Shown: positions 3,592 to 62,395, numbered from the stretch's first letter. The stretch is 64,000 bases of DNA from a virus (IMGVR_UViG_3300015371_000017:1-64000), one strand, 5' to 3'. The notes: generated from the letters alone by a model not told the origin. Numbers and translations: made by a program.

Positions 3592-4284
3592 GTGAAACCA
3601 TACTTTGACGACGGAAAGGGAATAGTGATTTATCACGGGGATTGTCGCGAGATCATTCCGCAGTTGATTATCGACCGAGGCGCGCCCTTCTGCGATTTGG
3701 TCCTTACCGATCCGCCTTACAACGCTGGCAAAGATTACGGCGGACATGATGATAGCCAGTCGGATTCGGATTACGAAGCATTCATTCGGCAAGTAGCAAT
3801 AGAGTGTCTGAAGTCCGCGCCTAATCAAGCGTGGGTTGCTCCGCGCTATAAGATGCGGCTATTTACCGACATCTTCCCATCCGCTCATTTGGTCGCAGTG
3901 CTACGTGGCGCAGCGGGCCCGTTTAGGCAAGGCTGGAGCGATCAATTTGAAACAGTTCTCACTATCGGTAAGCCGTCTCGTTGTGTTCCTGACGTGTGGG
4001 ATGACATTCGATTGAAAGGTGAGGGCTATTTCTTTCGAGAAGAAACCTTTGGACATCCCGGTTACACTCCACAAGGAATCATGTCTCGTTGTGCCTCATT
4101 ATTAGCCGTCGATTCACTTTGCGATCCGTTTTGTGGTACGGGTACGGCGTTGCGAGTCGCTAAGGACCAAAACAAGCGAGCGATAGGAATAGAACTGAAC
4201 GAAGCCTACTGCGAAATTGCGGCGAATCGTTTATCTCAAGAGGTTTTGCAATTTGCCCAAACACGCAACCATGACGAACTGTGA
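3592..4284 (+). CDS. orphan N6A/N4C DNA methyltransferase (beta class)
   Basis: IYHGDC, TDPPY, DPFCGTGT, AIGIE motifs. Confidence 0.9.
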   Translation: MKPYFDDGKGIVIYHGDCREIIPQLIIDRGAPFCDLVLTDPPYNAGKDYGGHDDSQSDSDYEAFIRQVAIECLKSAPNQAWVAPRYKMRLFTDIFPSAHLVAVLRGAAGPFRQGWSDQFETVLTIGKPSRCVPDVWDDIRLKGEGYFFREETFGHPGYTPQGIMSRCASLLAVDSLCDPFCGTGTALRVAKDQNKRAIGIELNEAYCEIAANRLSQEVLQFAQTRNHDEL

Positions 4285-4381
4285 TCACTGTGACAAACCA
4301 ACAGTAAGCCCTATAAACCTTTGTATCGAGTGCGGCAACATCTCAAGCTCAAGGAGGCGAAGTGAAACCATACTTCGATGA
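4271..4381 (+). CDS. 36-aa CxxC-CxxC micro-protein (not in ORF track)
   Basis: MTNCDHCDKPTVSPINLCIECG; paralog at 5552. Confidence 0.4.
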   Translation: MTNCDHCDKPTVSPINLCIECGNISSSRRRSETILR

Positions 4382-5030
4382 CGGAAAAGGGATAGTGATT
4401 TATCACGGTAATTGCCGTGAGGTTCTGCCGTCTCTGCCTAAGCCCGATCTTGTCGTCACAGACCCGCCTTACGTTGTTGGCGCAAAGGGCTGCGGCCTCG
4501 CAGGGGATCGCGCCTACTTGAAAGAGATAACCGCTCGCGACTTGGATCGTGGTTTTGACGTTAACATTCTCGCGCCCTTCCCGAACTGGTTTTGCTTCTG
4601 CGGGAAACAGCAACTGTTCGAGTTTGCGCCGTTGCTAAAGGATCGCACTTGGATGCTTCTGACGTGGAACAAGCCGAATCCGACGCCTCTCGTTAACAAT
4701 AACTACTTGCCCGATACTGAATACATCTTTCATGTTTGGGAACAAGGCCGCTTGTTTGGTGAGTATGCCGATAAGAGTCGGTTTATCGTGTGGCCTGCGG
4801 AGCAAAACAAATACAGCAACCCTAATGTGAAGCCTGCGCCTATCGTGGCAAAGTGTATTCGGCTCGGAAGTCAACGAGGCGACTTGATCATCGATCCTTA
4901 CTGCGGGAGCGGAAGCACTCTGCGCGAAGCGAAGCGATTGGGACGTCGCGCAATCGGAATCGAGAAGAACGAACGGGACTGCCAAGAGGCGGCGGAAAGT
5001 CTGTGTCAGGAGGTTCTACAATTCGCCTAA
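4362..5030 (+). CDS. orphan N6A/N4C DNA methyltransferase (beta class), paralog 2
   Basis: IYHGNC, TDPPY, WNKPN, DPYCGSGS, AIGIE motifs. Confidence 0.9.
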   Translation: MKPYFDDGKGIVIYHGNCREVLPSLPKPDLVVTDPPYVVGAKGCGLAGDRAYLKEITARDLDRGFDVNILAPFPNWFCFCGKQQLFEFAPLLKDRTWMLLTWNKPNPTPLVNNNYLPDTEYIFHVWEQGRLFGEYADKSRFIVWPAEQNKYSNPNVKPAPIVAKCIRLGSQRGDLIIDPYCGSGSTLREAKRLGRRAIGIEKNERDCQEAAESLCQEVLQFA

Positions 5031-8735: not shown

Positions 8736-9320
8736 TCAATTCCGCGATCTCGGTTTGTTGCTTCTTTTGCCCGTCCATGAATAAGAACCATAGGTATCAG
8801 TAGTTCTATGGCACGGCACGCATAGCGTTCTGCCATTATCTATAGCAAACCGAAGTTCTGGGAATAAGGAGAAGGGCTTGATATGATCAGCGTTCAAAGT
8901 CACCGGCTGTCCCTTTTTACTTCTCGCCCCGCACCATATACATCTGTAATCGTCGCGCTCAAATACCGCTTCGCGCCATAATCGGTATTCCCGCGACGTT
9001 CTGATTGTTATACATTCAGGGGTGATCCCACCGCGCCACCGCACGTTCTTTTCGCCTCGCGGTGAATTTGTGTTCCCTTTAGCCGCCCGGCTCAGATTTG
9101 CCCGATGCTCTGCTGAAAACACGCGCCCTTGCATTTTCTTAATTGTTTCGGGGCTATGCTTTCTGCCTTTGCTCGTTGCCCTAATATGCTCAATTACTTC
9201 AGGGTGTGAACGTAAGTAGCGCTTGCGGCTCTCGCTCATTTTACGCTTGACGGCCCCAGGATGTTTCCGGCCTTTTTGTCTATCGCTGCGTCGCTTACGC
9301 TCCGCATCTGAAATGATCAT
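8736..9320 (-). CDS. NUMOD3-HNH homing endonuclease
   Basis: KHSPETIKKM NUMOD3 repeats; VFERDDYRCIWCG...ADHIKPF...NGRTLCVPCH. Confidence 0.9.
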   Translation of the reverse strand: MIISDAERKRRSDRQKGRKHPGAVKRKMSESRKRYLRSHPEVIEHIRATSKGRKHSPETIKKMQGRVFSAEHRANLSRAAKGNTNSPRGEKNVRWRGGITPECITIRTSREYRLWREAVFERDDYRCIWCGARSKKGQPVTLNADHIKPFSLFPELRFAIDNGRTLCVPCHRTTDTYGSYSWTGKRSNKPRSRN

Positions 9321-9332
9321 TTTAGTTCTAAC

Positions 9333-10178
9333 TCAGCGCCTTCTTTTCATCTGTGCTTGTAACCGCTTAATTATAGCACCTTGCTCTGTTATTGCTTTTT
9401 CTTGTTTCTTCACTATCTCAAACAAATAGGAAACCATCGCAGCCTCGCGATTGGAATAAGGCTTGCCCTCGTTGTCATAATTAACTAACTCAGGATCGAC
9501 GGTAGCGAGACTTTCCGCGCTAAAACCAACAACATCCCTCGCGCCGTTTTCTTTGTAATCCCAGCGGATAGGCTTGAGACTCAGAAAAGCGTTTATTGCT
9601 TGAGTATTCGGATGCCACTCTCGCACGTTCTCTTTGAATCGCAAAGATGAAGTTAACGGGCGAAGCACATTACTACCATCAATGATTACCGCCGTGCCTG
9701 TTGACGATGTTGCAGTGGTAGTAAAGGCTGGGGAAGAAACCGATGCCGTAAATGTCGCGCCATTCGTGGCTGTAAATGTGAGTGTGCCCGCTCCGTTGTT
9801 AACGGTCATACGAGTGCCGCCACCCACTCCATAATCACTTGCGCTATTCGTGGTAGTTAGAAACGCCCCACTAGACGAGGAGAATGAGTTTGCTGTGACA
9901 TTGCTTGTAGTGGAAACCGTCCCCGCACCATCATCAGTAATAGAACTAGCAACTAAATTAGTTCCATCACTTTTGGTGACGACATTTGCCCCTGCGCTAT
10001 TTGTTATTCCGCCTCCACCTGTAGCTCCTGAAAAGCCCGATTTACCAGAAAACCCAGACGTGCCGCTGAATCCCGATGTACCACTAGCCCCAGCCGCTCC
10101 ACTCGCGCCAGAATACCCAGATGTTCCACCTCCGCCGCCTCCGGGGTTCTCTCCCGGCCCGCTTTGTTGTCCTGCCAT
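9333..10178 (-). CDS. tail fibre with Gly-X-Ser repeats and a C-terminal S74 intramolecular chaperone
   Basis: GTSGYSGASG repeats; TSSLRFKENV...L.PIRWDY...VGFSAE; coiled-coil end. Confidence 0.8.
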   Translation of the reverse strand: MAGQQSGPGENPGGGGGGTSGYSGASGAAGASGTSGFSGTSGFSGKSGFSGATGGGGITNSAGANVVTKSDGTNLVASSITDDGAGTVSTTSNVTANSFSSSSGAFLTTTNSASDYGVGGGTRMTVNNGAGTLTFTATNGATFTASVSSPAFTTTATSSTGTAVIIDGSNVLRPLTSSLRFKENVREWHPNTQAINAFLSLKPIRWDYKENGARDVVGFSAESLATVDPELVNYDNEGKPYSNREAAMVSYLFEIVKKQEKAITEQGAIIKRLQAQMKRRR

Positions 10179-10189
10179 AACTTTCTCCT

Positions 10190-10570
10190 TTAGAAGCCGT
10201 CAAAAACGAGGTCGCCAGTAGTTCCGCTGACGCTGTAAAACCAGACCCGCGACGGATCGACAATCCCTCGACAGAAATCATCTAGCCCAAACTTGAGCGT
10301 CGCCGCCGCAAGAGCGCCTTGGTAAACTCGCGGAGGCCCAGCACTGGCAGCATCCCGCACGTATTCATCGTGGCCTACATATACATCGCCTGCGGGGAGA
10401 ATGCTTGCCCCATTGCCCTCAAACGAATCAAGAGACGGAATGGTGGTGATAGCGTTGTTTGCGCCAACCTCATAGCCCCAGCCAGCAGTCCGCATCAGTG
10501 TTTCCATTGATACTGCCGTGGCTGCGGGGATCGCTACATTTTCCGAAAACCACTTCCTAGAACTAGCCAT
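10190..10570 (-). CDS. putative virion protein
   Basis: GGAG RBS; lies between the spike and fibre genes. Confidence 0.55.
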   Translation of the reverse strand: MASSRKWFSENVAIPAATAVSMETLMRTAGWGYEVGANNAITTIPSLDSFEGNGASILPAGDVYVGHDEYVRDAASAGPPRVYQGALAAATLKFGLDDFCRGIVDPSRVWFYSVSGTTGDLVFDGF

Positions 10571-10580
10571 AATTTGCTCC

Positions 10581-13019
10581 TCACTGTTCGTACCACACGC
10601 CGCCGAAGCGGGTGTAGCTCTTGATTGTATTTATCACTGGAGTCACGTTTGCTCCAGTTTGATTATTGATCGTTGCTCCTTGCACGATGGTTGAGTCTGC
10701 CGTAGTAAATCTTACGATGATTGTCTGTCCGTCTACTCCGCCGTTAAAGTTTGTGATATTCGTAGGAGCAGTGTTTGAAGCATTAAACAGCGACGCATTC
10801 GCCACGCTAGGACTAGTGTCCTCGTCCACAAAAGTTGTCGGGGAGTTGCTGATGATATTTGCACTTGCGGAAGTCAGCACCCCTAAATGCGTTAACGATC
10901 CGACTGTCGCCCAGGTAATCGGATTTGCTCCTGAATCGGTATAGCGGTAGCCGATGGTTGGCGTGCCTTGGATAGATAAATACACATCCCATGAAGCTTT
11001 AGTCGTGTCTGTGCGATTCCAGTTTGTTCCGTCATAATAAGCGTTTACAGTGAAGTGAAGATCGCCGTCCACAATTTGAGGAGAGCCGTTTCGGACAATA
11101 TGGTTTCCGCTGACTGGGTGTTCAAATACTGAACCTTCAAAATACTGGTTTACTATCGTGAGTAAGGTTGTATTTGAAGTAAGAACGTCCGCCGTGCTTC
11201 CCGATGCGGCGATCACCAGAACATACTGTAAGCGTCCCCTTATTAGCCCATTACTAAGTTCGCTTATTTCGGGTGATGAATACGCATACCACGCAGACGG
11301 CCCGCTTGTTCCGTTCACATATCGCTCAATGTACAGATTGAGATCAATTACTGTAGGCTGCGTGACTTCTAAAATTTTGGGGCATAGTTCAATGATGAAG
11401 TCGCCAGATAGAGGTCTAAAGCCCCGCTGCCCAAATAAAGCTGTACCACATTTGGAAATTGAAACTCGGCCATTAGTACGCGTATGCTCGGAGATCGATG
11501 CTCCATAGTAGTACCCATAAATAGAAACATTCTCTAATAAGCTTTCACTGAAGTTGGAAACAGACGGCATGTAAACGCCTACCGCCTCGCTGTGGGTTGG
11601 TTGGCTAGCAGAAGGAAATGCTATTCCCGTATCAACCATTACGTTTTTCAGGGTCGCATCAATAGCGTTGTGAAACTGAACTCCTCCCAGAGTTGGGTTG
11701 TCTGCTGTGCGCCAGCAGATGTTCTCCACCACAGGCACTACAGCATTAAAGGTCGTGGGATCGTTGAAGGTATCGCCTAAGGCGTGAGCCGCAATGATAG
11801 CGGGAGCGGTTCCTGAGCCAGTTGACGATCCGGCTTTGATGATGACTCCGGTAGAGGGAAGCGCACTGCCTGTGCGGGCGACTACTTGCCCTAAGAAGTG
11901 CATAGTGATAAGCGGGTTCCCATAAGCATTATTGGGAATGGTTAGGAGTGAGTTGTACGTTCCATCTAAAGTGCCATCTACGATGTAGATTCCCACCGGG
12001 AAATAGACTATCCCTCCCCCGGCGCTAAACACCGCCGCGATAGTCGCTTGAATGGCTGACTTGGAATTGGTCGAGTTGTCCCCGACTGCGCCCCACCAAC
12101 AAACCGAATAAGGCTGACCTGCTCTGTTTCCCGAAAGGCTAATCGTACCTTGACCGGCGGCTGAGTTATAAAAGATTTTCTGATTCAGAGGGGCGCGAAT
12201 GAATCCCGCAATCGTGATCGTGTTTCCTGTGGTGACGCTTAGACTCCCTCCTTGAAACTCTAAGGTCAACGTACTAGGGACACTAACCGTGGTGGCGGTC
12301 ATTTGCTCCGTGACAACTAAAACAGCCGTAGTGCTCCCAATCGCCGTGATTGCCGCGTTGAAATTAGCGAACTTACTTGCGTAGTAAACGGGCGGCGCAA
12401 CTCGCGCATCGTCATTTGAAACAACCTGAGAATCATTAGTGGTAGTTGTAACAATCCCCGCATTCGTTATAGATGCCAGGTCGTTTTTGCCCACAGCAAT
12501 GGGGAAGCCCGGATCGGCAGCATCTACGCTGATGGCCGTCATGCCAATTTGCGTGACCGAGGCTGTCCGTAGATTCCCTATTGCCTGATCGATCCACGCC
12601 CTTACTTGTACGTCAGTAGGTGAAGTAGCAAACAACTGCATGGGAAACTGCGTAAATAATGTCAGCAGTTCCCAAGTCGTAGTAGATGGAGTTGCAGGGA
12701 CTCCGAAGTTCTGAAGCAACGTCGCTACACTCCGTCCTTGTGCCCAGATTGTCGCGGCGTATAAGGCTACGGGAAGTGAAGAATCCGACGTTGAATCAAT
12801 CACAATGGACGGGATATTCAACACCGTGCCACTGTTGGTGAGAGTTAAGGGGACTTCGACATAAAACGCTCCTGCGCCATTACCAAAAATAGGTAGGACT
12901 AATTCACCTGTAGAAGCATAGAACGGACTGAGGGAAGCAATTTGCAGGGTGGGATCGTCGCCATCTTCGACGTGCCATGATGGAGTGGTGATTAACGGCT
13001 GTATGGTGATTTTAGCCAT
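10581..13019 (-). CDS. tailspike/depolymerase with pectate-lyase-like beta helix
   Basis: WWGAVGDNSTNSKSAIQATI...GGGIVYFPVGIY motif; beta-rich body. Confidence 0.8.
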   Translation of the reverse strand: MAKITIQPLITTPSWHVEDGDDPTLQIASLSPFYASTGELVLPIFGNGAGAFYVEVPLTLTNSGTVLNIPSIVIDSTSDSSLPVALYAATIWAQGRSVATLLQNFGVPATPSTTTWELLTLFTQFPMQLFATSPTDVQVRAWIDQAIGNLRTASVTQIGMTAISVDAADPGFPIAVGKNDLASITNAGIVTTTTNDSQVVSNDDARVAPPVYYASKFANFNAAITAIGSTTAVLVVTEQMTATTVSVPSTLTLEFQGGSLSVTTGNTITIAGFIRAPLNQKIFYNSAAGQGTISLSGNRAGQPYSVCWWGAVGDNSTNSKSAIQATIAAVFSAGGGIVYFPVGIYIVDGTLDGTYNSLLTIPNNAYGNPLITMHFLGQVVARTGSALPSTGVIIKAGSSTGSGTAPAIIAAHALGDTFNDPTTFNAVVPVVENICWRTADNPTLGGVQFHNAIDATLKNVMVDTGIAFPSASQPTHSEAVGVYMPSVSNFSESLLENVSIYGYYYGASISEHTRTNGRVSISKCGTALFGQRGFRPLSGDFIIELCPKILEVTQPTVIDLNLYIERYVNGTSGPSAWYAYSSPEISELSNGLIRGRLQYVLVIAASGSTADVLTSNTTLLTIVNQYFEGSVFEHPVSGNHIVRNGSPQIVDGDLHFTVNAYYDGTNWNRTDTTKASWDVYLSIQGTPTIGYRYTDSGANPITWATVGSLTHLGVLTSASANIISNSPTTFVDEDTSPSVANASLFNASNTAPTNITNFNGGVDGQTIIVRFTTADSTIVQGATINNQTGANVTPVINTIKSYTRFGGVWYEQ

Positions 13020-13026
13020 TGTTTAT

Positions 13027-13068
13027 AAAACTGCGCGACCCGCATACTGAGACACGGATCGCGCAGCA
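13027..13068 (-). terminator. intrinsic terminator/hairpin
   Basis: CTGCGCGA...TCGCGCAG stem followed by TTTT on the minus strand. Confidence 0.5.
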
Positions 13069-13100
13069 AAAGGAGAAACGTGTGTTGCGCGCCGCTCTCC

Positions 13101-13415
13101 CTAAGAAGTCCTTCCGGTCAGATACCATGTATTGAGGCCATCGCTCTCGCAGTAACCAATAGCACCATCGGTAATAGCAATGGTTGTATCGTCATTTCCG
13201 AAAGTGTCAGGACTCGTCACCGCCACTGTAGTTGCTGCGCCCGCTCCTACCACGCGGATGATGTTATTCCCCTGTTCCAACGTACAAGTGCGAGCTAATG
13301 GCAGAGTGATCGTCTTGCTGCCCGCGGTAACTTTCACAACGTCTGTTCCTGCGGTGACAGTCAGATTATCAGCCGTGGAAACAATTACTTGAAACGGACT
13401 TCCGAGTAATGACAT
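13101..13415 (-). CDS. putative virion decoration protein, paralog 3 (no repeats)
   Basis: shares the T(V/L)...D.V...TLP.A..C domain with the next two genes. Confidence 0.65.
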   Translation of the reverse strand: MSLLGSPFQVIVSTADNLTVTAGTDVVKVTAGSKTITLPLARTCTLEQGNNIIRVVGAGAATTVAVTSPDTFGNDDTTIAITDGAIGYCESDGLNTWYLTGRTS

Positions 13416-13464
13416 GACAGTTCTCCTTGATTAGCGGGGCAGCCTATATCACCCCGCCTTTGAA

Positions 13465-14016
13465 TTACGCGCCAGAGACGCCTGAGAATCCAGACTTGCC
13501 TGATGCCCCAGAGAATCCAGAGATACCCACAGCGCCAGAGACTCCTGAAGTCCCGCTAGCACCGCTGGCTCCACTAGCTCCGGTGAACCCGCTGGTTCCT
13601 ATGGCTCCCGAAACACCTGTGAATCCAGAGACTCCCGTGAATCCTGAAACACCTGTAAAGCCCGATTTACCCGACGCCCCGGTGAAGCCGGAAGTTCCAG
13701 CAACCCCGCCACCGCCCGTACCTGACCATGTAGCAGTTCCATTGCTGGTGACGGTCACAACCTGTCCCGGCTCGACAACTCCAACTCCAACAAGGTTGTT
13801 ACCAGAAGGAACGACAATGGTGACGTTTCCTACGGATGACGCATCGGAACGGATTTCTTTCTCACTCCGCTGATTCATCAAATTACACAATCCCGCAGCC
13901 GGAAGCGTGGCGTTACGTCCAGTGGTGATTAGGAATGTAATCACATCATCAGCAGGGAGAACTGTATAAGCTGCGTCTCCCGCTGCAATTTCCCGCGTGT
14001 ATGGTGAATTCAACAT
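13465..14016 (-). CDS. putative virion decoration protein with Gly-X-Ser/Thr tail, paralog 2
   Basis: N-domain YTVLPADDVI...TLPAAGLC plus collagen-like triplets. Confidence 0.75.
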   Translation of the reverse strand: MLNSPYTREIAAGDAAYTVLPADDVITFLITTGRNATLPAAGLCNLMNQRSEKEIRSDASSVGNVTIVVPSGNNLVGVGVVEPGQVVTVTSNGTATWSGTGGGGVAGTSGFTGASGKSGFTGVSGFTGVSGFTGVSGAIGTSGFTGASGASGASGTSGVSGAVGISGFSGASGKSGFSGVSGA

Positions 14017-14030
14017 CGCTAATCTCCTTG

Positions 14031-14606
14031 TTACGGTCTGGCTCCAGAGAAGCCACTAAATCCGCTTTGACCAGAAACTCCAGAGGTTCCCGAAGCGCCT
14101 ACCGCACCACTCGTCCCAGAGGTTCCAGCAAAGCCGCTCGTTCCGGCAAAGCCACTGATACCACTGACTCCGGTAGTACCTGAAAATCCCGATGTCCCTA
14201 CGAAACCCGACTTACCTGACGATCCAGTAAACCCTGACGCCCCAGAACCGCCGCTGTACCCAGAGATACCCGAAGTTCCCACACCACCATTGATCGTCCA
14301 GATATTCACTCCATCACCTGAGCACGTTGCTACTTCACCTGCCGCTAAGGTCTGTGCAGCGCTAGAAGCAGTCGCACCAAGTAACGTATCTCCCGACTGC
14401 ACAGCAATAGTGAGAGTATTCGAGGACGTAGAATCATTCGAGATGACTTTTTTATTCAGACCTGAAATAACTGAGCATTGAGAAGCGTGAGGAAGCGTGG
14501 CTGTCTTACCTGTGGCGATAACGAAATTAACCACCTTGTCGGCAGGGTCTAACGTATAATTGTTGGTCTTCGCTTCAAATACAGAATATTGATCGATTGG
14601 TGGCAT
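14031..14606 (-). CDS. putative virion decoration protein with Gly-X-Ser/Thr tail, paralog 1
   Basis: N-domain YTLDPADKVV...TLPHASQC plus collagen-like triplets. Confidence 0.75.
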   Translation of the reverse strand: MPPIDQYSVFEAKTNNYTLDPADKVVNFVIATGKTATLPHASQCSVISGLNKKVISNDSTSSNTLTIAVQSGDTLLGATASSAAQTLAAGEVATCSGDGVNIWTINGGVGTSGISGYSGGSGASGFTGSSGKSGFVGTSGFSGTTGVSGISGFAGTSGFAGTSGTSGAVGASGTSGVSGQSGFSGFSGARP

Positions 14607-14618
14607 TGTGAATTCTCC

Positions 14619-15098
14619 CTAGAGCGAAATCGGAGCCAATGAAGCCCCGATGCCTGCGATATTTGAAGCAGTTGACCACGGGGACTCGCTTTGAACAGTT
14701 GTCCCGCTAGTTGTCCCTGATTGAGTACCTGACGAAGTACCTACACTTCCTCGCGTGAGCCCAGCAAGAGCAAGATTCTTAGCTTGATTGATGCGATTTA
14801 CGTCATACTGTCCGGCCCGCGTTTCTGCTCCCGCCTCTTGCATTAATCCGCGCTGCCCAGAACGCCTAATGGCATCCCGAATCGCTGGCGAGACATAGCC
14901 TCCAGTGGGATTAACGAGCGATTCGTTTAGCTGGCGCTCTTTCTCTCCCAGCCTATAACCTATTGATGGGTCGATTTGTGCGCGGTCTGCGCGAGCGGCA
15001 ATGATGTCTGGAGTGTCAGGGACAGATGTGGTATTAGTCCCACTGTAGTTAGTGGTTGATGTTCCGGTACTCTTTTGTTTTTTGTCGCTGAGGCCCAA
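14619..15098 (-). CDS. putative internal/ejection virion protein
   Basis: S/T/G-rich ends and amphipathic C-terminus typical of podovirus pilot proteins. Confidence 0.5.
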   Translation of the reverse strand: MGLSDKKQKSTGTSTTNYSGTNTTSVPDTPDIIAARADRAQIDPSIGYRLGEKERQLNESLVNPTGGYVSPAIRDAIRRSGQRGLMQEAGAETRAGQYDVNRINQAKNLALAGLTRGSVGTSSGTQSGTTSGTTVQSESPWSTASNIAGIGASLAPISL

Positions 15099-15106
15099 TT
15101 AAGGGT

Positions 15107-15598
15107 TCACCCACGGTAGCCATATTTGACGAATTCCTTCATCACGGCGGGAAGTGTACCCGAATGCGCCGCGTCTTGTCCAGCACTTTGTATCGCTAAG
15201 ACACGCCGTTCGCCCTCAGCGAATCCTAATGACTCTAAGTATCGTTTTAGGGCTAGATTCCGCTTTGTGACCCATGCATTCAGTTCGACTGCTCCATTTT
15301 CCATGAACGCATCTCGAATCTTCAGCCCTGCCTCGACCAAGGTTTCCCTTGAAGTTCCTCGCTTGGAAGTGAAATGCGCCGAAAACTCACCGGGCGAATC
15401 CTCATAGAGAAGGAACATGGCGAAGTATTCACCGTTAAATACTCCAATGGTTATCTGATGGGGATCGTCACTGAGTAAGTCTTCCAAGGTAGATTCGTTT
15501 GCTCCGACATGGCGTTTACGCCGTCGCCACTTATGGGCTTCGCGGAATAGTTCGGTATCTTTGGCGGGATCGAGAATTCTTAATTCTATGCTTGACAT
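15107..15598 (-). CDS. GNAT-fold acetyltransferase-like protein
   Basis: AWVTKRNLALKRYLESLGF.EG motif; typical position beside podovirus internal proteins. Confidence 0.65.
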   Translation of the reverse strand: MSSIELRILDPAKDTELFREAHKWRRRKRHVGANESTLEDLLSDDPHQITIGVFNGEYFAMFLLYEDSPGEFSAHFTSKRGTSRETLVEAGLKIRDAFMENGAVELNAWVTKRNLALKRYLESLGFAEGERRVLAIQSAGQDAAHSGTLPAVMKEFVKYGYRG

Positions 15599-15620
15599 TA
15601 GCGAAGCGGTTCGGTATTGT
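15592..15620 (+). promoter_or_regulatory. promoter of an inverted moron (leaderless first gene)
   Basis: TTGACA-17-TATTGT, 7 nt before ATG 15628. Confidence 0.65.
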
Positions 15621-15627
15621 TCTTCAC

Positions 15628-15825
15628 ATGGAAACCAAATCATCAATGATAACAACGAGAGTTCAGCATCTTCTTAGTTCCTATAAGCTTTACGAAGAAG
15701 CGTGGAATCAACGTCCTAGACGTTCGGGATTTATCGACCAGCAACTTGAGGTAATCGAGAAGCATGAATTTATTCGCACTATGGCAATTTTAGACGCTAC
15801 GCAACCACATAGTGATGAAAAGTAA
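15628..15825 (+). CDS. moron gene 1, hypothetical
   Basis: 65 aa from ATG 15628, directly after the promoter. Confidence 0.5.
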   Translation: METKSSMITTRVQHLLSSYKLYEEAWNQRPRRSGFIDQQLEVIEKHEFIRTMAILDATQPHSDEK

Positions 15826-15937
15826 AGTCTCGCAAGCTGCCGCCATTTTAGGCCGCAAGGGTGGCAAGGTAAAGAGCGAAAAGAAGAAGGAAGCCGCACG
15901 GCGAAACGCTAAACTTCCAAGAAAGAGGAGGCAATGA
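15815..15937 (+). CDS. moron gene 2, 40-aa basic protein (not in ORF track)
   Basis: MKSKVSQAAAILGRKGGKVKSEKKKEAARRNAKLPRKRRQ. Confidence 0.6.
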   Translation: MKSKVSQAAAILGRKGGKVKSEKKKEAARRNAKLPRKRRQ

Positions 15938-16113
15938 TTTCAACTACAACTATCATCGTAACGGTTGTGATTATGCAAATCTTATTTGCCCTTGATGTTG
16001 CCTGCTACTTCAAAGCTACTTATCCTGCTCGGCAACGATTTATGTACGTGCCTATCGTTGGTGGTTTTATTGCTTTGCTGGCTTGCGGCAAGCAGTCTCA
16101 GCGGCGCGGTTAG
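15934..16113 (+). CDS. moron gene 3, 59-aa membrane protein (not in ORF track)
   Basis: GGAGG RBS, ATGA coupling, two hydrophobic segments. Confidence 0.5.
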   Translation: MISTTTIIVTVVIMQILFALDVACYFKATYPARQRFMYVPIVGGFIALLACGKQSQRRG

Positions 16114-16569
16114 AATTCTTTCCACTGCCCACACTGCTTGTCTAGCGGGGACAAATACAGACGGATCGTGAGGTTCGTTGTGCCAGTCACAATACTGAAA
16201 TTGTCGGAAGTTCTTCTCGCTGACAAAGAGATTTTCGTTTTCAGGATAACCGAAAATGTAAGGCGAACTCTTGCCCCATAACACTACGCCGTTTTTCAGT
16301 TTGTAATACGCGCATAGATGCGGCAGGAAACTATCTACGCTCACCCAGACATCACACTCGCCCACCAAGTCTCGAATCCGTGTTAAAGGTAGACCAATAC
16401 GGAATTCGTCTACTCCTTCAATTCGCTGCTCGCCTTGAATGCCAATCTGGATAATATGATGCTCGTTGGCTTTCAGCATGGTAACAAGTTCGGGCCAGTG
16501 CGGATATTCCTTGGCGGACTTCGCGCCGCTTGGAAGTTTAGCAGGGTATGGCGCGATTAAAATCTTCAC
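15982..16569 (-). CDS. GT9 (heptosyltransferase-like) C-terminal Rossmann half
   Basis: KEYPHW.EL, IIQIG, VSVDSFLPHL, VVLWG.S.P..FGY; GTG start overlaps the GIY-YIG stop. Confidence 0.8.
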   Translation of the reverse strand: MKILIAPYPAKLPSGAKSAKEYPHWPELVTMLKANEHHIIQIGIQGEQRIEGVDEFRIGLPLTRIRDLVGECDVWVSVDSFLPHLCAYYKLKNGVVLWGKSSPYIFGYPENENLFVSEKNFRQFQYCDWHNEPHDPSVFVPARQAVWAVERILTAPLRLLAASQQSNKTTNDRHVHKSLPSRISSFEVAGNIKGK

Positions 16570-17540
16570 GCCGCATACCTCCACACATAACCCTTAGATG
16601 TTTCCCAAGTACCACGACAGCATTGGTTGATATTCCGCGCTCCCGTTGTTCTAGCGGCGATCTGGATAGAAGGGTAAAACGCTACGATTCCGTTCTTCGG
16701 ATCGATTTGAACAACAGCCCTACGGCGGGAAGGGTAAACCAATCCTTTATGTGCGGTGCTTATATTGGCCCGTGCTTGAGCATCCATGCACCGACCTTTA
16801 TTCCACGCTCCCATCAACCCCTTAGTGCCCTTATTCCACGGTACGCGGCCTTTAAGCGAGTTATTCAGTTTTCGTCTAGCCTCTTCGCTCATTGGGACGC
16901 CTTTATTCCAGCTAGGAATACCTACCTTTTTACCTTTATTGGACGCGCTAATTTTTTGTCGCGTTTCAGCCGTAACTATTCGGCCCTTGTTCGCTTCACT
17001 GATTTTCTTTTTATGTTCATCTGTTAGAGGCCCGAAAGTTTGAGCCGCTTTCCATTTAGCAATATGCTCTGGCGATAATTTTCTGCCAGTTAGTGCCTTA
17101 CTTACCTTTGCGTATGTTTCGGGTGTTCGGATGCGAATTCGTTGGGCTGCGCTAATTTTGGCTCTAACTTCTGGAGGGTGCTTGTGACCCATGTGGGCTT
17201 TGCTGAGTTTAGCTCGCATCTCAGCAGTTTGGAATGTTTTATGCGCCGTGGGCCAGATATTATAACCATGCGCTCTTTTGGCAGCCTTGTGTTTATCAAG
17301 GTACTCTTGCTCTATATTTAATAGGGCGCTTTCTTCACATTGTGCCAAGATAACAAATTCAAACGCAGCTTCGCCGTGGCGATTAAAAGCATTTTGAAAA
17401 TAGTCGTTATCGTGAACGCCGCGTCTCAAAAGGCTAAGGTGGGTTCTCTTGCGGCTTTCAATCCAATTACTACTGCCAATATAAACTTTTCCGTCTATCG
17501 TATTTCTAAACCAATAGACTCCGCATGTACGTGTCTTCAT
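16566..17540 (-). CDS. GIY-YIG homing endonuclease with NUMOD3/NUMOD1 domains
   Basis: GVYWFRNTIDGKVYIGSS; H.N...Q.AFN.HG; YNI; NUMOD3 and PWNKG repeats. Confidence 0.9.
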   Translation of the reverse strand: MKTRTCGVYWFRNTIDGKVYIGSSNWIESRKRTHLSLLRRGVHDNDYFQNAFNRHGEAAFEFVILAQCEESALLNIEQEYLDKHKAAKRAHGYNIWPTAHKTFQTAEMRAKLSKAHMGHKHPPEVRAKISAAQRIRIRTPETYAKVSKALTGRKLSPEHIAKWKAAQTFGPLTDEHKKKISEANKGRIVTAETRQKISASNKGKKVGIPSWNKGVPMSEEARRKLNNSLKGRVPWNKGTKGLMGAWNKGRCMDAQARANISTAHKGLVYPSRRRAVVQIDPKNGIVAFYPSIQIAARTTGARNINQCCRGTWETSKGYVWRYAA

Positions 17541-17543
17541 CGC

Positions 17544-19166
17544 TCAGTCCAGTTCATATAAAGCCTCAAACGCTTCGACTATTGGACGCTCCCAATTCTT
17601 CTCCCATGCGTACTTATAGGGATCAAGATGCTCGATATTTCCTAGCCTCATTTTAGCATCCGCGATGCTGATTATCTCAACATTTTCACCTTCAAATACT
17701 TCGGGATAACAAACTGCTAACAAGGGCGTCCCGTACTTCTTAATGAAGCGCGGGAGCAGTCCTCGGAAGATGTAGTGATCGCCAATTCCGCTGTCCAAAA
17801 CCGCGATTTTCCGTTGGGTGAACTTCTCGCCCGTCGTTGCGCCTAGCCACTCAACAAAAAGTTTATTATCACGATCCCACAAGCTGCCGTCACTAAAAGA
17901 GCGTACTCCGCCTTCGGGTTGTTGGAGATGCCACGCTTTTGCAAACGGAGTTACCGCAAGCCGAAATCCTGCGGCTCTAATCTTCATCGAAAACCAACTG
18001 TCTTCGCGGAAGCTGACGGGAGACAGTTTAGGATAACCCCCTGCTTGCCGCCCGGCCTTAGTTCTATACATAAATGCCGAATATAAATGCTGGGTTTCGC
18101 GCACCGCTCCGTTGAATGAATACCATTGAATGTTCACCCCGTTGAATATGTCTTCCACGTTGCCCTTTATGTGATCAGGAAGGGGCTGAACATGGCCGGG
18201 GGAATGAATTAGCGGAGCGATAGCGCCTAGTGTTTCGTCTGCCTCCAATTCCTTCAAAAGCTCTTCTATGACATTCGGCTCTAAAACTATGTCGTCATCC
18301 ATGCGCATCAGATAGTCTGTCGAGGCCGTGCTAAGGGCATGTTGTCGGTTAGTAGCGAGTCCGAGGCGCGGAGTAGTGAACGTCTCAATCTCAATTCCCA
18401 CCTGTTCGAGAAGTTGAAAGAGTTCTCGATAAGGTGATATGTCTCTTAGCTCTTTTTGCTCCCCATCGTCATACAGGACAAATCGCTCAGGTTTGCGAGT
18501 TTGGGTTGCGATTGACGCGATGGTTGCAGGAAGCGTGGTGAAGTATCTTCCGATTGTCGAAATCTCAACTGTGACGGTAGGCGCTGTTTTGGCCGCTAGT
18601 TTGAAGTGACTGCGCTCCATATACCGCTCACGTTCCGGGGTTGAATCACCGACTTGTTTAATTCCCGCAAAGTACAAATCTTCCATATCCCCACGGTATC
18701 CGAGATAAGATTTAGAAAAGAGATCGGGAGATAAGACTGAAGCGAAGTCTTCTACTGAAATGTTTCGATAGTGGTCAGTAGTAAACGGACTGGCGAAAGC
18801 GTCGTGGTCTGTTGTTCCATGCTCCCAGCGATTCGGAGCGGCGCAAGTAACCAAAAACAACCCTCCGTCTCTGAGGTTCCGGTACATCTGGCGTAACGAT
18901 AATTCCCAGTGTTGGTCGTGCTCCAACATCTCCGTGCAAATAATGACGTTGTACCAGCCCGGACATTCCCATTCGTGCGCTTTAGAAACACAATCAACTC
19001 CCACACCTTCGCCTAAATCAATTCCTATGTAATCACAGTCAGTAAAGAACTCCCGCGCCCCGCCGTCTATTTCCAGCGAGCCAACATCCAAGACTTTCTT
19101 TCCCGAAAAGAATTCAGGGTATTCAGCCTTGACTTGCTTGATGAACCATTTCGCTTCTCGATGCAA
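17544..19166 (-). CDS. SAM methyltransferase + GT2 glycosyltransferase + GT9 N-terminal half fusion
   Basis: VLDVGS, CTEMLEHD; LYDDG, RMDDD, FREDS; C-terminal DSGIGDH; TTG start after GGAGG. Confidence 0.85.
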   Translation of the reverse strand: MHREAKWFIKQVKAEYPEFFSGKKVLDVGSLEIDGGAREFFTDCDYIGIDLGEGVGVDCVSKAHEWECPGWYNVIICTEMLEHDQHWELSLRQMYRNLRDGGLFLVTCAAPNRWEHGTTDHDAFASPFTTDHYRNISVEDFASVLSPDLFSKSYLGYRGDMEDLYFAGIKQVGDSTPERERYMERSHFKLAAKTAPTVTVEISTIGRYFTTLPATIASIATQTRKPERFVLYDDGEQKELRDISPYRELFQLLEQVGIEIETFTTPRLGLATNRQHALSTASTDYLMRMDDDIVLEPNVIEELLKELEADETLGAIAPLIHSPGHVQPLPDHIKGNVEDIFNGVNIQWYSFNGAVRETQHLYSAFMYRTKAGRQAGGYPKLSPVSFREDSWFSMKIRAAGFRLAVTPFAKAWHLQQPEGGVRSFSDGSLWDRDNKLFVEWLGATTGEKFTQRKIAVLDSGIGDHYIFRGLLPRFIKKYGTPLLAVCYPEVFEGENVEIISIADAKMRLGNIEHLDPYKYAWEKNWERPIVEAFEALYELD

Positions 19167-20472
19167 AGAATCCTCCAAATCCAAGCATTGATTCTGAAAC
19201 TAAAGGTGTCTCTAATGCGCGCCAGATGCCCGTATTAGGCACTTGTTCCGCGATTACCAACGAGTCAACCGCTTGAATTACACCAGGCCAATCAGAAGTG
19301 TAATCATGGCCGCAAAGTAACCCATCAGCAGTTAGACATGGACGCCAATTCATAATGTCCGCCGTGACTGAATCTACGTCATGTGCTCCGTCCACGAAGA
19401 TCATATTTACTGAGATTCTCAGTTGCCGCATCAACTTGGACGCAGCTAGGCTGTTCATGCGAAGGGGAATGACTCGCCCTGCGTCAATATGATCCCAAAG
19501 GTTTTTGCAAAACTGAAGGTATGCGCCGTCACCGTCATATTCCCTTGAAGCACTGAATGCCGGATCGTCACTCATCGCCCACGAATCAACTGCGTATAAT
19601 CGTCCGCCTTCTGGTAGGTTGTCAGCTAACGCTCGCGTACTGCGACCCATCCAGCTTCCAATTTCTACAATGACGGGATGCGTCTTTGCGGACTCCGCTA
19701 GCCATTGCAGTTCACTCTCCGACATCCAACCTTCGATTTGTTTGGCTCGTTCAATATCCACTGAACCATATCGCTGTCTCAGTAACTTCCGGTTTCTTTC
19801 AACCACTTCTACGTGATTTGGCAACTGTCCGAGCGTGGATTCTCCCTCATGTGAAATAGGAAATGACCCAACCCATCTTGATCGCTTCCACTCCGGTAAA
19901 TGCTCACTATTTGGTACGTGTTCTAATCGGCACTCTTCACCTACGGGAACTTGTACCCATTTCCATCCTGCTTGTTCTGCACGAACACAGAGATCGATGT
20001 CCTCGCCATAAAAGGGACTAAATTGCTCATCCAACCAACCGATCTCATTCAACATCTCTCTTCTTAACATCGCACAGAAGAAGATAATAAATTCATGTTG
20101 TGCGTCTTCACTCCAGAGTTTGTGTGAACCTGTTATTCCTACCTTTGGATCGGAGAACGGATCGGAGAGTAAATTAAGCCAGTGATTCTTTTCTTGAGTG
20201 AGAAGTTCGCAGTCGTCATTTAAGAGTACGACGTATTCCCCTTGCGACTCTTTTATCCCCGTGTTTACGGCGCGACTAAAGCCTTGTGGCTCATCAAACC
20301 AAAGTAATGTGAGAGGTATGCCCATTGACATAATCTCTCGCGTCTCAGGCGGAGCGCCATTTGCACATACGACAATCTCGCAATCATTCAAGTCCGTATA
20401 TTGAACAATAGATTTTAAGAGGGTTTTTAAGCCTCCTGTATTGAGGTACGTTGGGATGATAATACTTTTCAT
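19123..20472 (-). CDS. GT2 glycosyltransferase + class I methyltransferase (Methyltransf_24-like) fusion
   Basis: SIIIPTY, GFSRAVNTG, LLNDD, GEDIDLC; VEIGSWMGRS, FVDGAH, GHDY. Confidence 0.9.
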   Translation of the reverse strand: MKSIIIPTYLNTGGLKTLLKSIVQYTDLNDCEIVVCANGAPPETREIMSMGIPLTLLWFDEPQGFSRAVNTGIKESQGEYVVLLNDDCELLTQEKNHWLNLLSDPFSDPKVGITGSHKLWSEDAQHEFIIFFCAMLRREMLNEIGWLDEQFSPFYGEDIDLCVRAEQAGWKWVQVPVGEECRLEHVPNSEHLPEWKRSRWVGSFPISHEGESTLGQLPNHVEVVERNRKLLRQRYGSVDIERAKQIEGWMSESELQWLAESAKTHPVIVEIGSWMGRSTRALADNLPEGGRLYAVDSWAMSDDPAFSASREYDGDGAYLQFCKNLWDHIDAGRVIPLRMNSLAASKLMRQLRISVNMIFVDGAHDVDSVTADIMNWRPCLTADGLLCGHDYTSDWPGVIQAVDSLVIAEQVPNTGIWRALETPLVSESMLGFGGFFASRSEMVHQASQG

Positions 20473-22007
20473 TCAGCCTCCCACATAAACACTTGCGCGC
20501 CGGGCGATCCGGTGACAGTCCACGCTATATCAAAAGTCGTTGCGCCGATGTTTTGCACGATTCCCACTACGCCTACGTTTGCTGCTGTGCTTATTACAAT
20601 ACCATTTGTGGTAGAAGTTGCAGCGGCCTGAGTAGTGGTGATGGCGGCTGTATTATAACTCTGAGATATGCTTCTATTCCCACTCGCATTAGCAACCCCG
20701 ATAGAAACCGTTGTTGGGGTAGCGGAGTTGTTGCCAGTAAAAGTTCCCATTCCATAAATTCTAATTATCTTTGGCGTTCTCCCCAAACCATGGGTTACGG
20801 ATGTTGTTTGCGTCGATGTAGAGGTAGTGCCCACCCCTGCTGTTGAGCCTATCGTTCCGGTTGCCCCAGACGTTCCCGAGAAACCGGAGACGCCAGAAAA
20901 TCCCGATGTCCCGCTTGCCCCTGAAGTCCCTGCGCCGCTTACCCCGGTGAACCCGGACGTGCCAGAAAAGCCAGACACTCCACTGAATCCAGAAATGCCG
21001 CTTGCGCCAGTAAAGCCTGAGATACCCGACGCGCCTGTAAATCCTGAGACTCCCGAAAAGCCAGAAGTACCTGCGGCCCCGCTGACACCAGTGAAACCTG
21101 ACTTGCCACTTGCTCCACTCGCGCCAGATACTCCGTCAGCACCAGTTGCGCCTGCTTGTCCACTCACCCCTGAAAACCCGGATGTACCCGACGCGCCACT
21201 TATCCCTGAGTCTCCTGAGAAGCCGCTTACGCCTGAAGCACCATCCGCGCCTGTTGCTCCTGCTTCACCGGAAAATCCAGATACGCCGCTAGCCCCGCTT
21301 GCACCGGAAGCCCCGTCTACTCCTATCGTTCCCGCTTCCCCGCTTACACCTGAATAGCCGGAAACACCTGAGTATCCAGAATCTCCCGAAGCCCCTGAAA
21401 CCCCACTGGCACCGGGATTCGCCCCACTAAATCCAGACTTGCCGGACGCTCCAGACGCACCCGAAAAGCCTGAAGCTCCATCAGCCCCAACTACCCCGCT
21501 TGCTCCGGTAAAACCTGATGTCCCTGAAGCGCCCGACGCCCCAGACGCTCCGGGGTTTGCGCCACTAAAACCGGACGTTCCAGAAGCCCCTGAACCTCCC
21601 GTGAAGCCACTAACGCCGCTGAACCCACTCTTACCACTTGCACCACTCGCTCCGCTTATTCCCGTGCCGCTGAAACCTGACTTACCGGAAGTTCCCGAAT
21701 ATCCACTGACACCACTCGTTCCCGGAGCGCCGGGGTTAGCTCCGCTATACCCAGACACACCAGAATAACCAGAGACTCCTGAAAACCCGGAAGCACCCGG
21801 ATTGGCCCCGCTGTATCCTGATTTACCTGAGTAGCCTGATTTGCCGGAATAACCTGACTTGCCTGAGAAACCTGAGTAGCCTGTATTGCCTACCGTAACG
21901 ACGCGGATTACTTGATCGCCCTGAACCTCAACTGTTTGAGTGTCGGAAACAGTGATGGTAGTTGGCGAACCAACTTCCTGAATAGTGATGTTGACGAGTT
22001 GAAGCAC
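20469..22007 (-). CDS. long collagen-like Gly-X-Ser fibre protein
   Basis: roughly 340-350 aa of G-X-S/T triplets; C-terminal HGLGRTP fibre-tip domain. Confidence 0.85.
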   Translation of the reverse strand: MLQLVNITIQEVGSPTTITVSDTQTVEVQGDQVIRVVTVGNTGYSGFSGKSGYSGKSGYSGKSGYSGANPGASGFSGVSGYSGVSGYSGANPGAPGTSGVSGYSGTSGKSGFSGTGISGASGASGKSGFSGVSGFTGGSGASGTSGFSGANPGASGASGASGTSGFTGASGVVGADGASGFSGASGASGKSGFSGANPGASGVSGASGDSGYSGVSGYSGVSGEAGTIGVDGASGASGASGVSGFSGEAGATGADGASGVSGFSGDSGISGASGTSGFSGVSGQAGATGADGVSGASGASGKSGFTGVSGAAGTSGFSGVSGFTGASGISGFTGASGISGFSGVSGFSGTSGFTGVSGAGTSGASGTSGFSGVSGFSGTSGATGTIGSTAGVGTTSTSTQTTSVTHGLGRTPKIIRIYGMGTFTGNNSATPTTVSIGVANASGNRSISQSYNTAAITTTQAAATSTTNGIVISTAANVGVVGIVQNIGATTFDIAWTVTGSPGAQVFMWEAE

Positions 22008-50287: not shown

Positions 50288-50983
50288 TCACTGTTCTAGA
50301 TTGCTCTCTTGCGGCGCTAACTCATTGCTGGTGTTAGACTTATCGAGCAATGAACCGCTGGGCCACACCTCTGGATGCACACTCGCGTCCAGGTCAGCAG
50401 AGTAATCCTCGTCTGACTTGTCGGCGTAGCTTATTTGATATTCTCGCTCAATCTCAAGAGGATCATCGCCGGAGTTACTGGCTAATTTAGCGATATTACG
50501 GGACATTTTAGCTTTGAAGGATGAGAAGTCGAAGGAAGAGACCGAAGACTCTACTTTATCAGTGAATAATGCGTGGATTTTACCGACATCGCGCTGAGCT
50601 TCGTGAGCGGAGTAAGTTTCCAATCCGATGACTTTGCCAGAGTCCTTATCAAACTTCAGTGATTTGATTAGTTTTGATTTATTGCGGGCTTTTGCTGAGG
50701 AAATATTAAAAGAGCCATCAGGCTCAAGAACATCAGCAATGTCAGCGCGGGCAATATCTGAGAGTCTTTCGACAACCTCGTCAGCGTCCATTTTGGCCTT
50801 ACGAAGAGCCGCTTCAGTTACTTGGTTAATCATAGCTTTGATTTTAGCGGATTTAAGCAACCGATGCGCAGTTACTCCGGCTGCGAAGTATCCTTGCTTA
50901 TAACCAGCTGCGAATACCGCCTGAACGCCATTGCCGCCGTTTCTAATGTACTCAGCAGCGAATAGTCTGTGTTGCGGCCTCAA
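50288..50983 (-). CDS. terS: terminase small subunit
   Basis: F..EY...GGNG.QA..AAGY...A.RLL....I; VVERLSDIARAD. Confidence 0.85.
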   Translation of the reverse strand: MRPQHRLFAAEYIRNGGNGVQAVFAAGYKQGYFAAGVTAHRLLKSAKIKAMINQVTEAALRKAKMDADEVVERLSDIARADIADVLEPDGSFNISSAKARNKSKLIKSLKFDKDSGKVIGLETYSAHEAQRDVGKIHALFTDKVESSVSSFDFSSFKAKMSRNIAKLASNSGDDPLEIEREYQISYADKSDEDYSADLDASVHPEVWPSGSLLDKSNTSNELAPQESNLEQ

Positions 50984-52657: not shown

Positions 52658-52941
52658 CCGACGTAGCTTGCATTTGTCCCGTAGTAGAAATCCGCGATAG
52701 CGGCGATTTCGTTACTGAGGCTATGATGCTGAAGATCGCCCGTGATCTGAGAGCTACCGTCACGCTGTCAAATCCGAAGTCGCACAGAACGGTATTCGGC
52801 AAACACCTGATGACTTGCCCTTGCTGGACGCGATCATCTGAAGGCTTTAAGGCGGGGCTGTGCGTAGGCCGTTTTGGAACTAACTCAGATGGGTGTACGA
52901 AGTGCGGGCTGTCTCGCGCAGATCACGGGGAGGCGCAATGA
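52654..52941 (+). CDS. IS passenger gene, Cys-rich
   Basis: ATGA-coupled on both sides; CTKCG...H. Confidence 0.55.
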   Translation: MTDVACICPVVEIRDSGDFVTEAMMLKIARDLRATVTLSNPKSHRTVFGKHLMTCPCWTRSSEGFKAGLCVGRFGTNSDGCTKCGLSRADHGEAQ

Positions 52942-61579: not shown

Positions 61580-61682
61580 GTTGCGCAGCGGACAGGACTC
61601 GAACCTGCAATCGAGCACCTCATCGCGTTTAGTGCTCACGGGCATTCCGCGCGTCTGCCATTTCCGCCACTCGCCGCGCAAC
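61580..61682 (-). ncRNA. tRNA-like RNA lacking a normal anticodon arm
   Basis: D arm TGGCGGAAATGGCAGACGC, T arm GCAGGTTCGAGTCCTGT, acceptor GCGGCG/CGCTGC, 3-bp/5-nt anticodon stub, long variable arm. Confidence 0.75.
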
Positions 61683-62360: not shown

Positions 62361-62395
62361 TCCCACACGCTTGCGCGTCAGCTTCGACCAGAAGT

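Follow-up and report, generated by a model that had tools for sequence, protein, structure and literature searches.

Proline-free Gly-X-Ser/Thr fibre genes of a phage are linked to a glycosyltransferase-methyltransferase cassette with a split GT9 unit, a candidate system for fibre glycosylation

The 64,000-nt stretch IMGVR_UViG_3300015371_000017:1-64000 (the window) covers the opening 64 kb of a viral record that is 75.1 kb long, is rated complete and represents an uncultured phage. Here we describe a group of fibre genes encoding Gly-X-Ser/Thr repeats in this phage, together with a block of putative glycosyltransferase (GT) and methyltransferase genes lying next to the longest of them (Table 1). 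Both are parts of a single long minus-strand late module extending from approximately 48000 down to 8700, which also contains the large terminase, a pectate-lyase-like tailspike, several fibre genes and a 2017-aa internal virion protein with a lytic transglycosylase at its N-terminus; the small-terminase gene is located just above the module at 50288-50983. The presence of the tailspike shows that the region is a host-recognition module. When the enzyme block was compared with deposited phages by blastn, no match was obtained and no DNA-level resemblance to the region was seen.

Table 1. Genes of the fibre and enzyme region (positions of the window)
Feature	Position	Strand	Basis
512-aa fibre: 114 Gly-X-Ser/Thr triplets between a short N-terminal part and a C-terminal beta-sandwich domain of 120 aa	20469..22007	-	Pfam Collagen
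GT2 (GT-A fold) + Methyltransf_24, 449 aa	19123..20472	-	PF00535 E 5e-16, PF13578 E 1.9e-15
Methyltransf_23 + GT2 + ~100-aa C-terminal domain (putative GT9 N-half), 540 aa	17544..19166	-	Pfam; fold of a fused homologue
GIY-YIG / NUMOD3 homing endonuclease at the junction of the two GT9 halves, 324 aa	16566..17540	-	NUMOD3 E 9.9e-21, GIY-YIG E 5e-07
GT9 C-terminal (nucleotide-sugar-binding) half, 195 aa	15982..16569	-	Family profile vs WaaC, PF01075
GNAT-fold acetyltransferase-like protein (DUF2824-like), possible accessory	15107..15598	-	ESM Atlas structure matches to GNAT clusters, TM 0.74-0.80
191-aa protein: 106-aa N-terminal domain, 28 Gly-X-Ser/Thr triplets to the C-terminus	14031..14606	-	Collagen E 1.3e-12; PHROG tail-fibre families
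183-aa paralogue: N-terminal domain, 27 Gly-X-Ser/Thr triplets	13465..14016	-	Collagen match; PHROG tail-fibre families
Repeat-free 104-aa protein paralogous to that N-terminal domain	13101..13415	-	E 4.4e-08 to the N-domain of the 191-aa protein
812-aa tailspike, pectate-lyase-like beta-helix	10581..13019	-	PF12708 E 1.2e-10; tail spike PHROG
281-aa S74 fibre: N-terminal 15 Gly-X-Ser/Thr triplets, Ser/Thr-rich middle, C-terminal Peptidase_S74 intramolecular chaperone	9333..10178	-	Pfam, triplet count

Four proteins of the module carried Gly-X-Ser/Thr triplets with almost no Pro, exactly where an earlier interpretation made from the DNA alone (the sequence-only reading) had placed them, and a scan of the whole genome detected such tracts in no other gene. 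In the 512-aa fibre, the Y position was occupied by Ser in 85 and by Thr in 11 of the 114 triplets, the X position mainly by Ala, Phe, Val, Thr or Tyr, and only a single Pro was present. The triplets form runs of up to 54, interrupted by one-residue insertions in recurring GANPGA motifs. The Collagen family PF01391 (cut-off 27.2 bits) matched this protein with 152.6 bits (E 2.4e-45) and the two short repeat proteins with 46 and 47.7 bits, while in the S74 fibre the triplets correspond to residues 15-59 and Peptidase_S74 scored 27.8 bits (cut-off 22). The coding sequences of the repeats use all six Ser and all four Gly codons, and Tandem Repeats Finder (TRF) detected only three small arrays. 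As the codons are mixed and the DNA tandem repeats minor, the periodicity is maintained in the protein, by selection on the protein pattern. Long Pro-rich open reading frames (ORFs) on the plus strand at 20827-21357, 21439-21768, 13427-13873 and 9850-10221 merely mirror the coding sequence of the repeats on the other strand and were rejected as genes.

The C-terminal domain of the 512-aa fibre is common to 33 protein clusters and was modelled by AlphaFold2 (AF2) as an all-beta structure with a predicted local distance difference test (pLDDT) score of 87.6. It showed weak structural matches only (Z 5-6.6), which were to phage tailspike and fibre tips and H-type lectins; a C1q/TNF-like match as in BclA was not found, the best structural matches having Z <= 6.6. 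The three tandem paralogues share an N-terminal domain of approximately 100 aa (E 5.8e-16 and 4.4e-08). The repeats of the 191- and 183-aa proteins reach the very C-terminus, so that these two lack a C-terminal folding domain, unlike usual collagen-like fibres. A collagen triple helix is plausible for the repeats, because Gly occurs strictly at every third residue and one of the repeat proteins bears the S74 chaperone, a domain typical of trimeric fibres. The repeats may instead adopt a polyglycine-II structure. A left-handed beta-helix of the hexapeptide type was rejected, as the aromatic residue is irregularly spaced and Gly strictly recurs at every third position.

The stop codon of the 512-aa fibre gene and the start codon of the GT2-Methyltransf_24 gene do overlap as ATGA, as the sequence-only reading had stated. 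The predicted domains and the order of the enzyme genes (GT2-methyltransferase, methyltransferase-GT2-GT9 N-half, GT9 C-half) also held, apart from an endonuclease gene between the last two that had been overlooked. The 540-aa gene probably starts with TTG at 19166, its open frame extending to 19184, and the GT9 C-half gene with GTG at 16569, in a frame open to 16584. The two GT2 domains scored 59.5 and 56.3 bits to PF00535 (cut-off 23.3), with PDB profile matches including chondroitin synthase and SpsA, and their acidic DxD-type motifs (N85/D87 in the first, D290-D292 in the second) were invariant across homologues. Both methyltransferase domains were also above the Pfam cut-offs (Methyltransf_24, 58 bits against 26.3; Methyltransf_23, 37.3 bits against 27), and the Methyltransf_24 half matched PDB 6g7d (E 3.2e-11). 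A single-protein scan with the 449-aa enzyme gave no match. No membrane segment was detected in the three enzyme proteins, which should thus act in the cytoplasm.

The C-terminal domain of the 540-aa protein always travels with the GT2 of this protein and carries an invariant G-x-G-D-H (GIGDH) motif. The gene directly following the GT2-GT9N gene, wherever both genes were seen, encodes the GT9 C-half, for which 60 homologues were found. In this family of approximately 155 aa, 32 of 36 members matched PF01075 (best E 4.5e-09), and the family profile, in which a Lys and an Asp...His motif are conserved, covered residues 180-294 of WaaC (E 4.7e-06). The N-half domain and the C-half gene occurred together in 58 loci, 61 and 62 loci holding either, and the copies in the window retain the residues that are conserved in each half. 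In L094, L086, L106 and about two dozen further clusters among the representatives, the two halves are fused in one chain; the alignment of the GT9 unit took in such fused forms only. The fused 282-aa segment of L094 (L094:12689-13534) was modelled by AF2 with a pLDDT of 92.1 and a predicted TM-score (pTM) of 0.88. In Foldseek, TibC was matched at E 1.7e-07, and chains of TibC, 3TOV, WaaC and WaaF were among the 30 matches below E 0.001. Structural alignment with VIA ranked TibC at the top (Z 19.0, 261 of 282 residues aligned), followed by 3TOV and WaaF (17.4) and WaaC (17.2), the GT9 structures other than TibC lying at 16.5-17.4. The scores to other GT-B folds were at most 11, except for one unrelated chain at 13.1. 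From this model, the split GT9 is predicted to be real as a two-domain GT9 fold.

At the junction of the two halves in the window, the product of the inserted gene, a putative endonuclease, scored 73.8 bits to NUMOD3 and 30.4 bits to GIY-YIG. On its upstream side a spacer of 3 nt precedes the gene, and on its downstream side it overlaps the next gene as GTGA. In relatives the endonuclease is absent from this site, and the GT2-GT9N and GT9C genes overlap by ATGA. A free-standing GIY-YIG homing endonuclease gene has thus been inserted into the GT9 gene junction. As relatives without the endonuclease already have separate, ATGA-overlapping genes, the split itself is ancestral and was not caused by the endonuclease. 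The sequence-only reading had proposed a split GT9, which the fold of the fused homologue bears out, but missed this ancestral state, and the part that it called GT9N lacks any sequence match. No group I intron was detected around the endonuclease gene by Rfam; an intron hosting it was rejected, as the tight packing in addition leaves no space for a ribozyme core outside the endonuclease frame. The homologue P0031 (891 aa) of the neighbouring enzyme gene contains an intein domain (PF14890), and two kinds of mobile element, homing endonuclease and intein, therefore target these two genes. Two further homing-endonuclease-like genes are found at 8736-9320 (minus strand), where an HNH + NUMOD3 product is encoded immediately after the S74 fibre gene, and close to the end of the genome (71732-72415; L241:7732-8415, plus strand), where the product is of the AP2 + HNH type.

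The association of the repeats with the enzyme genes (the cassette) was investigated across viral genomes from both sides. For the repeat side, the search was seeded with 162 repeat residues only; it yielded 414 viral loci that could be confirmed, and 78 of these were retained. Control phage loci were fetched by alignment to Methyltransf_23 and mostly share only that domain. Cassette enzymes were present in 44 of the 78 repeat-fetched loci, compared with seven of 78 controls (p 1.8e-10), and in 19 of the 31 repeat-fetched loci having at least 4 kb of downstream flank. Hence, Gly-X-Ser proteins were not usually found without GT genes, the outcome that would have contradicted the proposed link. 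Nine records whose repeat genes have no enzymes nearby were tested, and in three of them the GT9 C-half is encoded at another place; the only two complete records (482 kb and 374 kb) are among these three.

For the enzyme side, loci were fetched solely by enzyme alignments. A Pro-free Gly-X-Ser/Thr protein was encoded in 14 of 26 full cassettes, compared with four of 134 other enzyme-fetched loci (p 4.7e-10). When at least 4 kb of upstream sequence was available, 11 of 16 full cassettes had a repeat protein; among the five exceptions, three have repeats elsewhere in the record and two are 7-8% fragments. Conventional Pro-rich collagen-like genes were found in four loci, none of which had a cassette GT. 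The expected co-occurrence of Gly-X-Ser genes with GT2, GT9 and methyltransferase genes was thus strong in both directions, and extended to immediate adjacency on the same strand.

The cassette has a conserved order on one strand: fibre, GT2-methyltransferase, GT2-GT9N and GT9C. The repeat protein ranges from 250 to 3400 aa, whereas the GT2-methyltransferase and GT2-GT9N proteins are approximately 430 and 327 aa, respectively. The gap between the repeat gene and the GT2 gene was 200 nt or less in 28 of 61 loci, and 18 of the 20 cassettes examined had a methyltransferase domain fused to the first GT2 (GT2a). Classified by the genes that flank it, the cassette forms at least 12 groups, and the contigs carrying it range from 26 to 482 kb. 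Among the loci fetched with Methyltransf_23, only L004 has the repeats; this unrelated 142-kb contig shows the same partnership, with a 1030-aa Gly-Tyr-Ser protein. The Methyltransf_23 domain stands alone, as a protein of approximately 170 aa, in at least 259 viral loci, and almost none of those fetched (L005-L082) contain Gly-X-Ser repeats or cassette GT2s. A search of 185,579 prokaryote genomes detected the GT9 half only in 10 contigs of metagenome-assembled genomes (MAGs) belonging to unrelated phyla. Other cassette domains are also encoded on eight of the 10 contigs, and a repeat gene on three, suggesting mis-binned phage DNA. In some phages, repeat proteins of 3200-3400 aa with 570-790 Gly-X-Ser/Thr triplets are encoded, namely at L209:5657-15856, L226:35-9859 and L212:3317-13003; as triple helices they would measure about half a micrometre, estimated at approximately 0.86 nm per triplet.

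Taken together, we consider it fairly probable that the phage encodes a system glycosylating its own fibres. The repeat-enzyme linkage, the GT9 fold and the frequent fusion of methyltransferase to GT2 support this part of the sequence-only reading, which is sustained only in part. In the proposed mechanism, the fibre and enzyme genes would be expressed late in infection as one tightly packed minus-strand unit. The cytoplasmic enzymes would draw on nucleotide-sugars of the host, as no sugar-nucleotide pathway was seen among the phage proteins scanned. Sugars would be placed on the Y-position Ser/Thr of the triplets in the 512-aa fibre, with probable modification also of the 191- and 183-aa proteins and of the S74 fibre at its N-terminus. 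The C-terminal domain of the 540-aa protein and the separate 195-aa half may together make up a GT9-fold enzyme, which would add the first sugar; this priming role is suggested by TibC, the nearest solved structure, an enzyme whose targets are serines in a repetitive protein. Elongation of the glycan would then fall to the two GT2 domains, and the two S-adenosylmethionine (SAM)-dependent methyltransferase domains would O-methylate its sugars. The expected product is a proline-free trimeric collagen-like rod under a dense glycan coat, which might replace proline/hydroxyproline in stabilizing the helix and shield or functionalize the fibre. The proposal is well supported by comparative genomics, from which we infer the glycosylation itself.

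Several observations weigh against this interpretation. Twelve of the 31 well-flanked repeat loci have no enzymes nearby, and six of the nine tested records (19-58% complete, up to 140 kb) show no GT9 C-half. When the 62 loci with both partners are clustered by single linkage on their flanking genes, as many as 48 end up together, so that part of the counting is pseudo-replication and the Fisher p-values are too favourable. The many exposed Phe/Tyr residues at X, with no Pro or charged residues, are unusual for a stable collagen. As for the GT9 unit, the C-half of the window alone scored 16.4 bits to PF01075, below the cut-off of 22, the N-half had no sequence match in PDB or Pfam, and the evidence for the fold comes from a homologue in another phage, not from the split pair of the window. 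Its link through TibC to protein glycosylation is given by the fold rank alone, at 1.6 Z above the lipopolysaccharide (LPS) heptosyltransferases. TIGR04414 (BAHT) was not matched at E up to 1 by the window proteins, the three fused homologues or the L094 segment, so the unit is not a sequence member of the TibC/AAH family; five repeat-bearing records, all incomplete, gave no TIGR04414 match either. In addition, fibre genes and glycosyltransferases both gather in phage host-recognition islands (PMC7029224), and such a shared island could yield linkage without an enzyme-substrate relation, because both types of gene collect there.

This last point forms the basis of an alternative that we regard as unlikely, in which the enzymes modify a host envelope glycan (LPS, capsule or S-layer glycan), for example for superinfection block or receptor remodelling, and the adjacency to the fibre genes reflects a shared variable island. 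Synthesis of LPS and polysaccharides typically involves GT2, GT9 and sugar methyltransferases, LPS heptosyltransferases are what the GT9 C-half matches best in sequence, and the pectate-lyase-like tailspike points to a polysaccharide-coated host; glycosyltransferases in host-recognition clusters of aquatic phages were also read as LPS-related (PMC7029224). However, the observed linkage is specific to the repeat type, as seen from the other enzyme-fetched loci (4/134) and the Pro-rich collagen-like loci (0/4). The adjacency is immediate and often overlapping, and the enzymes are without membrane segments. Neither flippase, polymerase nor lipid-carrier transferase was seen among the genes scanned, and the GT9 half is nearly absent from cellular genomes (10 MAG contigs in 185,579 genomes).

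Two further explanations account for the linkage even less well. The enzymes might glycosylate other virion proteins, such as the capsid or tail tube, with unmodified collagen-like or polyglycine-II fibres merely sharing the module, which we judge rather improbable. The enzyme genes do sit in the structural module, and phage GTs of mycobacteriophages are documented to glycosylate capsid and tail-tube proteins at their C-termini (Freeman et al. 2023, PMC10527164, as cited in PMC12619734). Nevertheless, in different genomic backgrounds the cassette follows the repeat gene and not capsid or tail genes, and repeat records without nearby enzymes often hold the GT9 half elsewhere. Glycosylation or other modification of the phage DNA for evading restriction, recalling the classical DNA-modifying role of phage GTs and a faint match of one GT2a homologue to a TET-associated glycosyltransferase (E 5e-04), is highly improbable, as the genes lie in a late structural operon and overlap a fibre gene, the proteins scanned included three N6/N4 DNA methylases but no hydroxymethylase or base-hypermodification gene, and linkage to one repeat type would not be predicted.

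Glycosylation of the Gly-X-Ser/Thr fibres has several partial precedents. SgtA, encoded beside bclA3 in Clostridioides difficile, transfers O-linked N-acetylglucosamine (O-GlcNAc) onto Thr, and also Ser, of collagen-like repeats (PMC7157674). This system and BclA of the Bacillus anthracis exosporium resemble the phage proposal in that Y-position hydroxy-amino acids within a repeat are O-glycosylated and the GT is encoded adjacently. Of the SgtA-BclA3 type, the phage shows the adjacency of GT and collagen-like genes, together with linkage of the two across genomes, and the modification is predicted. The bacterial proteins differ in having Gly-Pro-Thr repeats and a location on the spore surface, whereas the phage repeats are Pro-free, mostly contain Ser, belong to fibres and are accompanied by a fixed set of GT2, GT2, GT9 and methyltransferase. 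BclA glycans terminate in a methylated sugar. Chlorovirus PBCV-1 A064R combines two glycosyltransferase domains with a sugar methyltransferase and produces a methylated glycan on a virion protein. This likeness is by description, and A064R comes from a eukaryotic virus with N-linked capsid glycans and uses other GT families.

A split GT-B enzyme is known in Alg13/Alg14, whose two Rossmann-like halves are separate, associating polypeptides. The phage unit belongs to another GT family and would have another acceptor, its N-half is tethered to a methyltransferase-GT2 protein, its gene pair overlaps by ATGA in relatives, and fused forms exist beside it in nature. TibC adds heptose to serines of TibA (PMC4358343), and both TibC-TibA and AAH-AIDA-I (BAHT; PDB 4RAP/4RB4; PMC4358343) represent a GT9-fold enzyme acting in the cytoplasm on many serines of a repetitive protein. 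At approximately 260 aa, compared with approximately 400 aa for TibC, the phage unit is about 140 residues shorter and without a TIGR04414 match; unlike BAHT, it usually consists of two polypeptides with the N-half fused to GT2, and its proposed acceptor is a Gly-X-Ser repeat and not a beta-helix. Judged from sequence comparison, the unit of the window seems to be a minimal, split lineage distinct from the true TibC family.

Mycobacteriophage virion glycosylation (PMC10527164) is similar in that phage-encoded GTs modify the phage's own structural proteins. There, the modified sites are reported to be C-terminal tails of the subunits that form capsid and tail tube, in contrast to collagen-like fibres, and no dedicated repeat acceptor, GT9 unit or methyltransferase fusion is known to be described. 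We found no paper in the literature on phage Gly-X-Ser fibres with dedicated glycosyltransferases. Compared with glycosylated bacterial collagen-like proteins and mycobacteriophage virion glycosylation, the system is new as a variant with phage Gly-X-Ser fibres and its own enzyme set. Only tentatively do we suggest a broader possibility, an undescribed class of Pro-free glyco-collagen, built by many environmental phages, in which a glycan on nearly every third residue would take over from proline or hydroxyproline in stabilizing the triple helix, attached by phage-specific enzymes and primed by a minimal split GT9-fold O-glycosyltransferase tethered to GT2 and methyltransferase domains.

Some other genes of the phage were also observed. 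The GNAT-fold gene follows the GT9 C-half gene at a distance of 327 nt, an interval that may contain an ORF of 63 aa. The GNAT-fold protein had no match in Pfam; it might acetylate the glycan or a virion protein. The three N6/N4 DNA methylase genes of the 75-kb genome are located at 3592-4284 (plus strand), 4362-5030 (plus) and 61737-62366 (minus), and for two of them the best stretch covers only the C-terminal part of the model. A transposase of the IS1595 family (DDE_Tnp_IS1595, E 1e-41, with a zinc ribbon) is encoded at 52893-53855 (plus strand), suggesting an insertion sequence within a phage. ARAGORN predicted an unusually long 95-nt tRNA-Gly(GCC) at 61583-61677 (minus strand), where Rfam found no tRNA at the gathering score; if real, it would suit a phage with fibres that are one-third glycine.

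If the fibres are indeed glycosylated by this cassette, protein glycosylation would be common in environmental phages, beyond a few mycobacteriophages; a single viral collection yielded the 414 repeat loci as well as 541 loci related to the GT2 + Methyltransf_24 protein. The cassette would then provide a compact set of approximately three enzyme genes with a simple, programmable acceptor motif (Gly-X-Ser), as well as a natural test of whether glycans can substitute for proline in holding a collagen helix. The split GT9, with fused and split forms coexisting, offers a clean natural case for the assembly of GT-B halves. For the phages themselves, glycosylated fibres would be a new variable in host range, stability and immune recognition.

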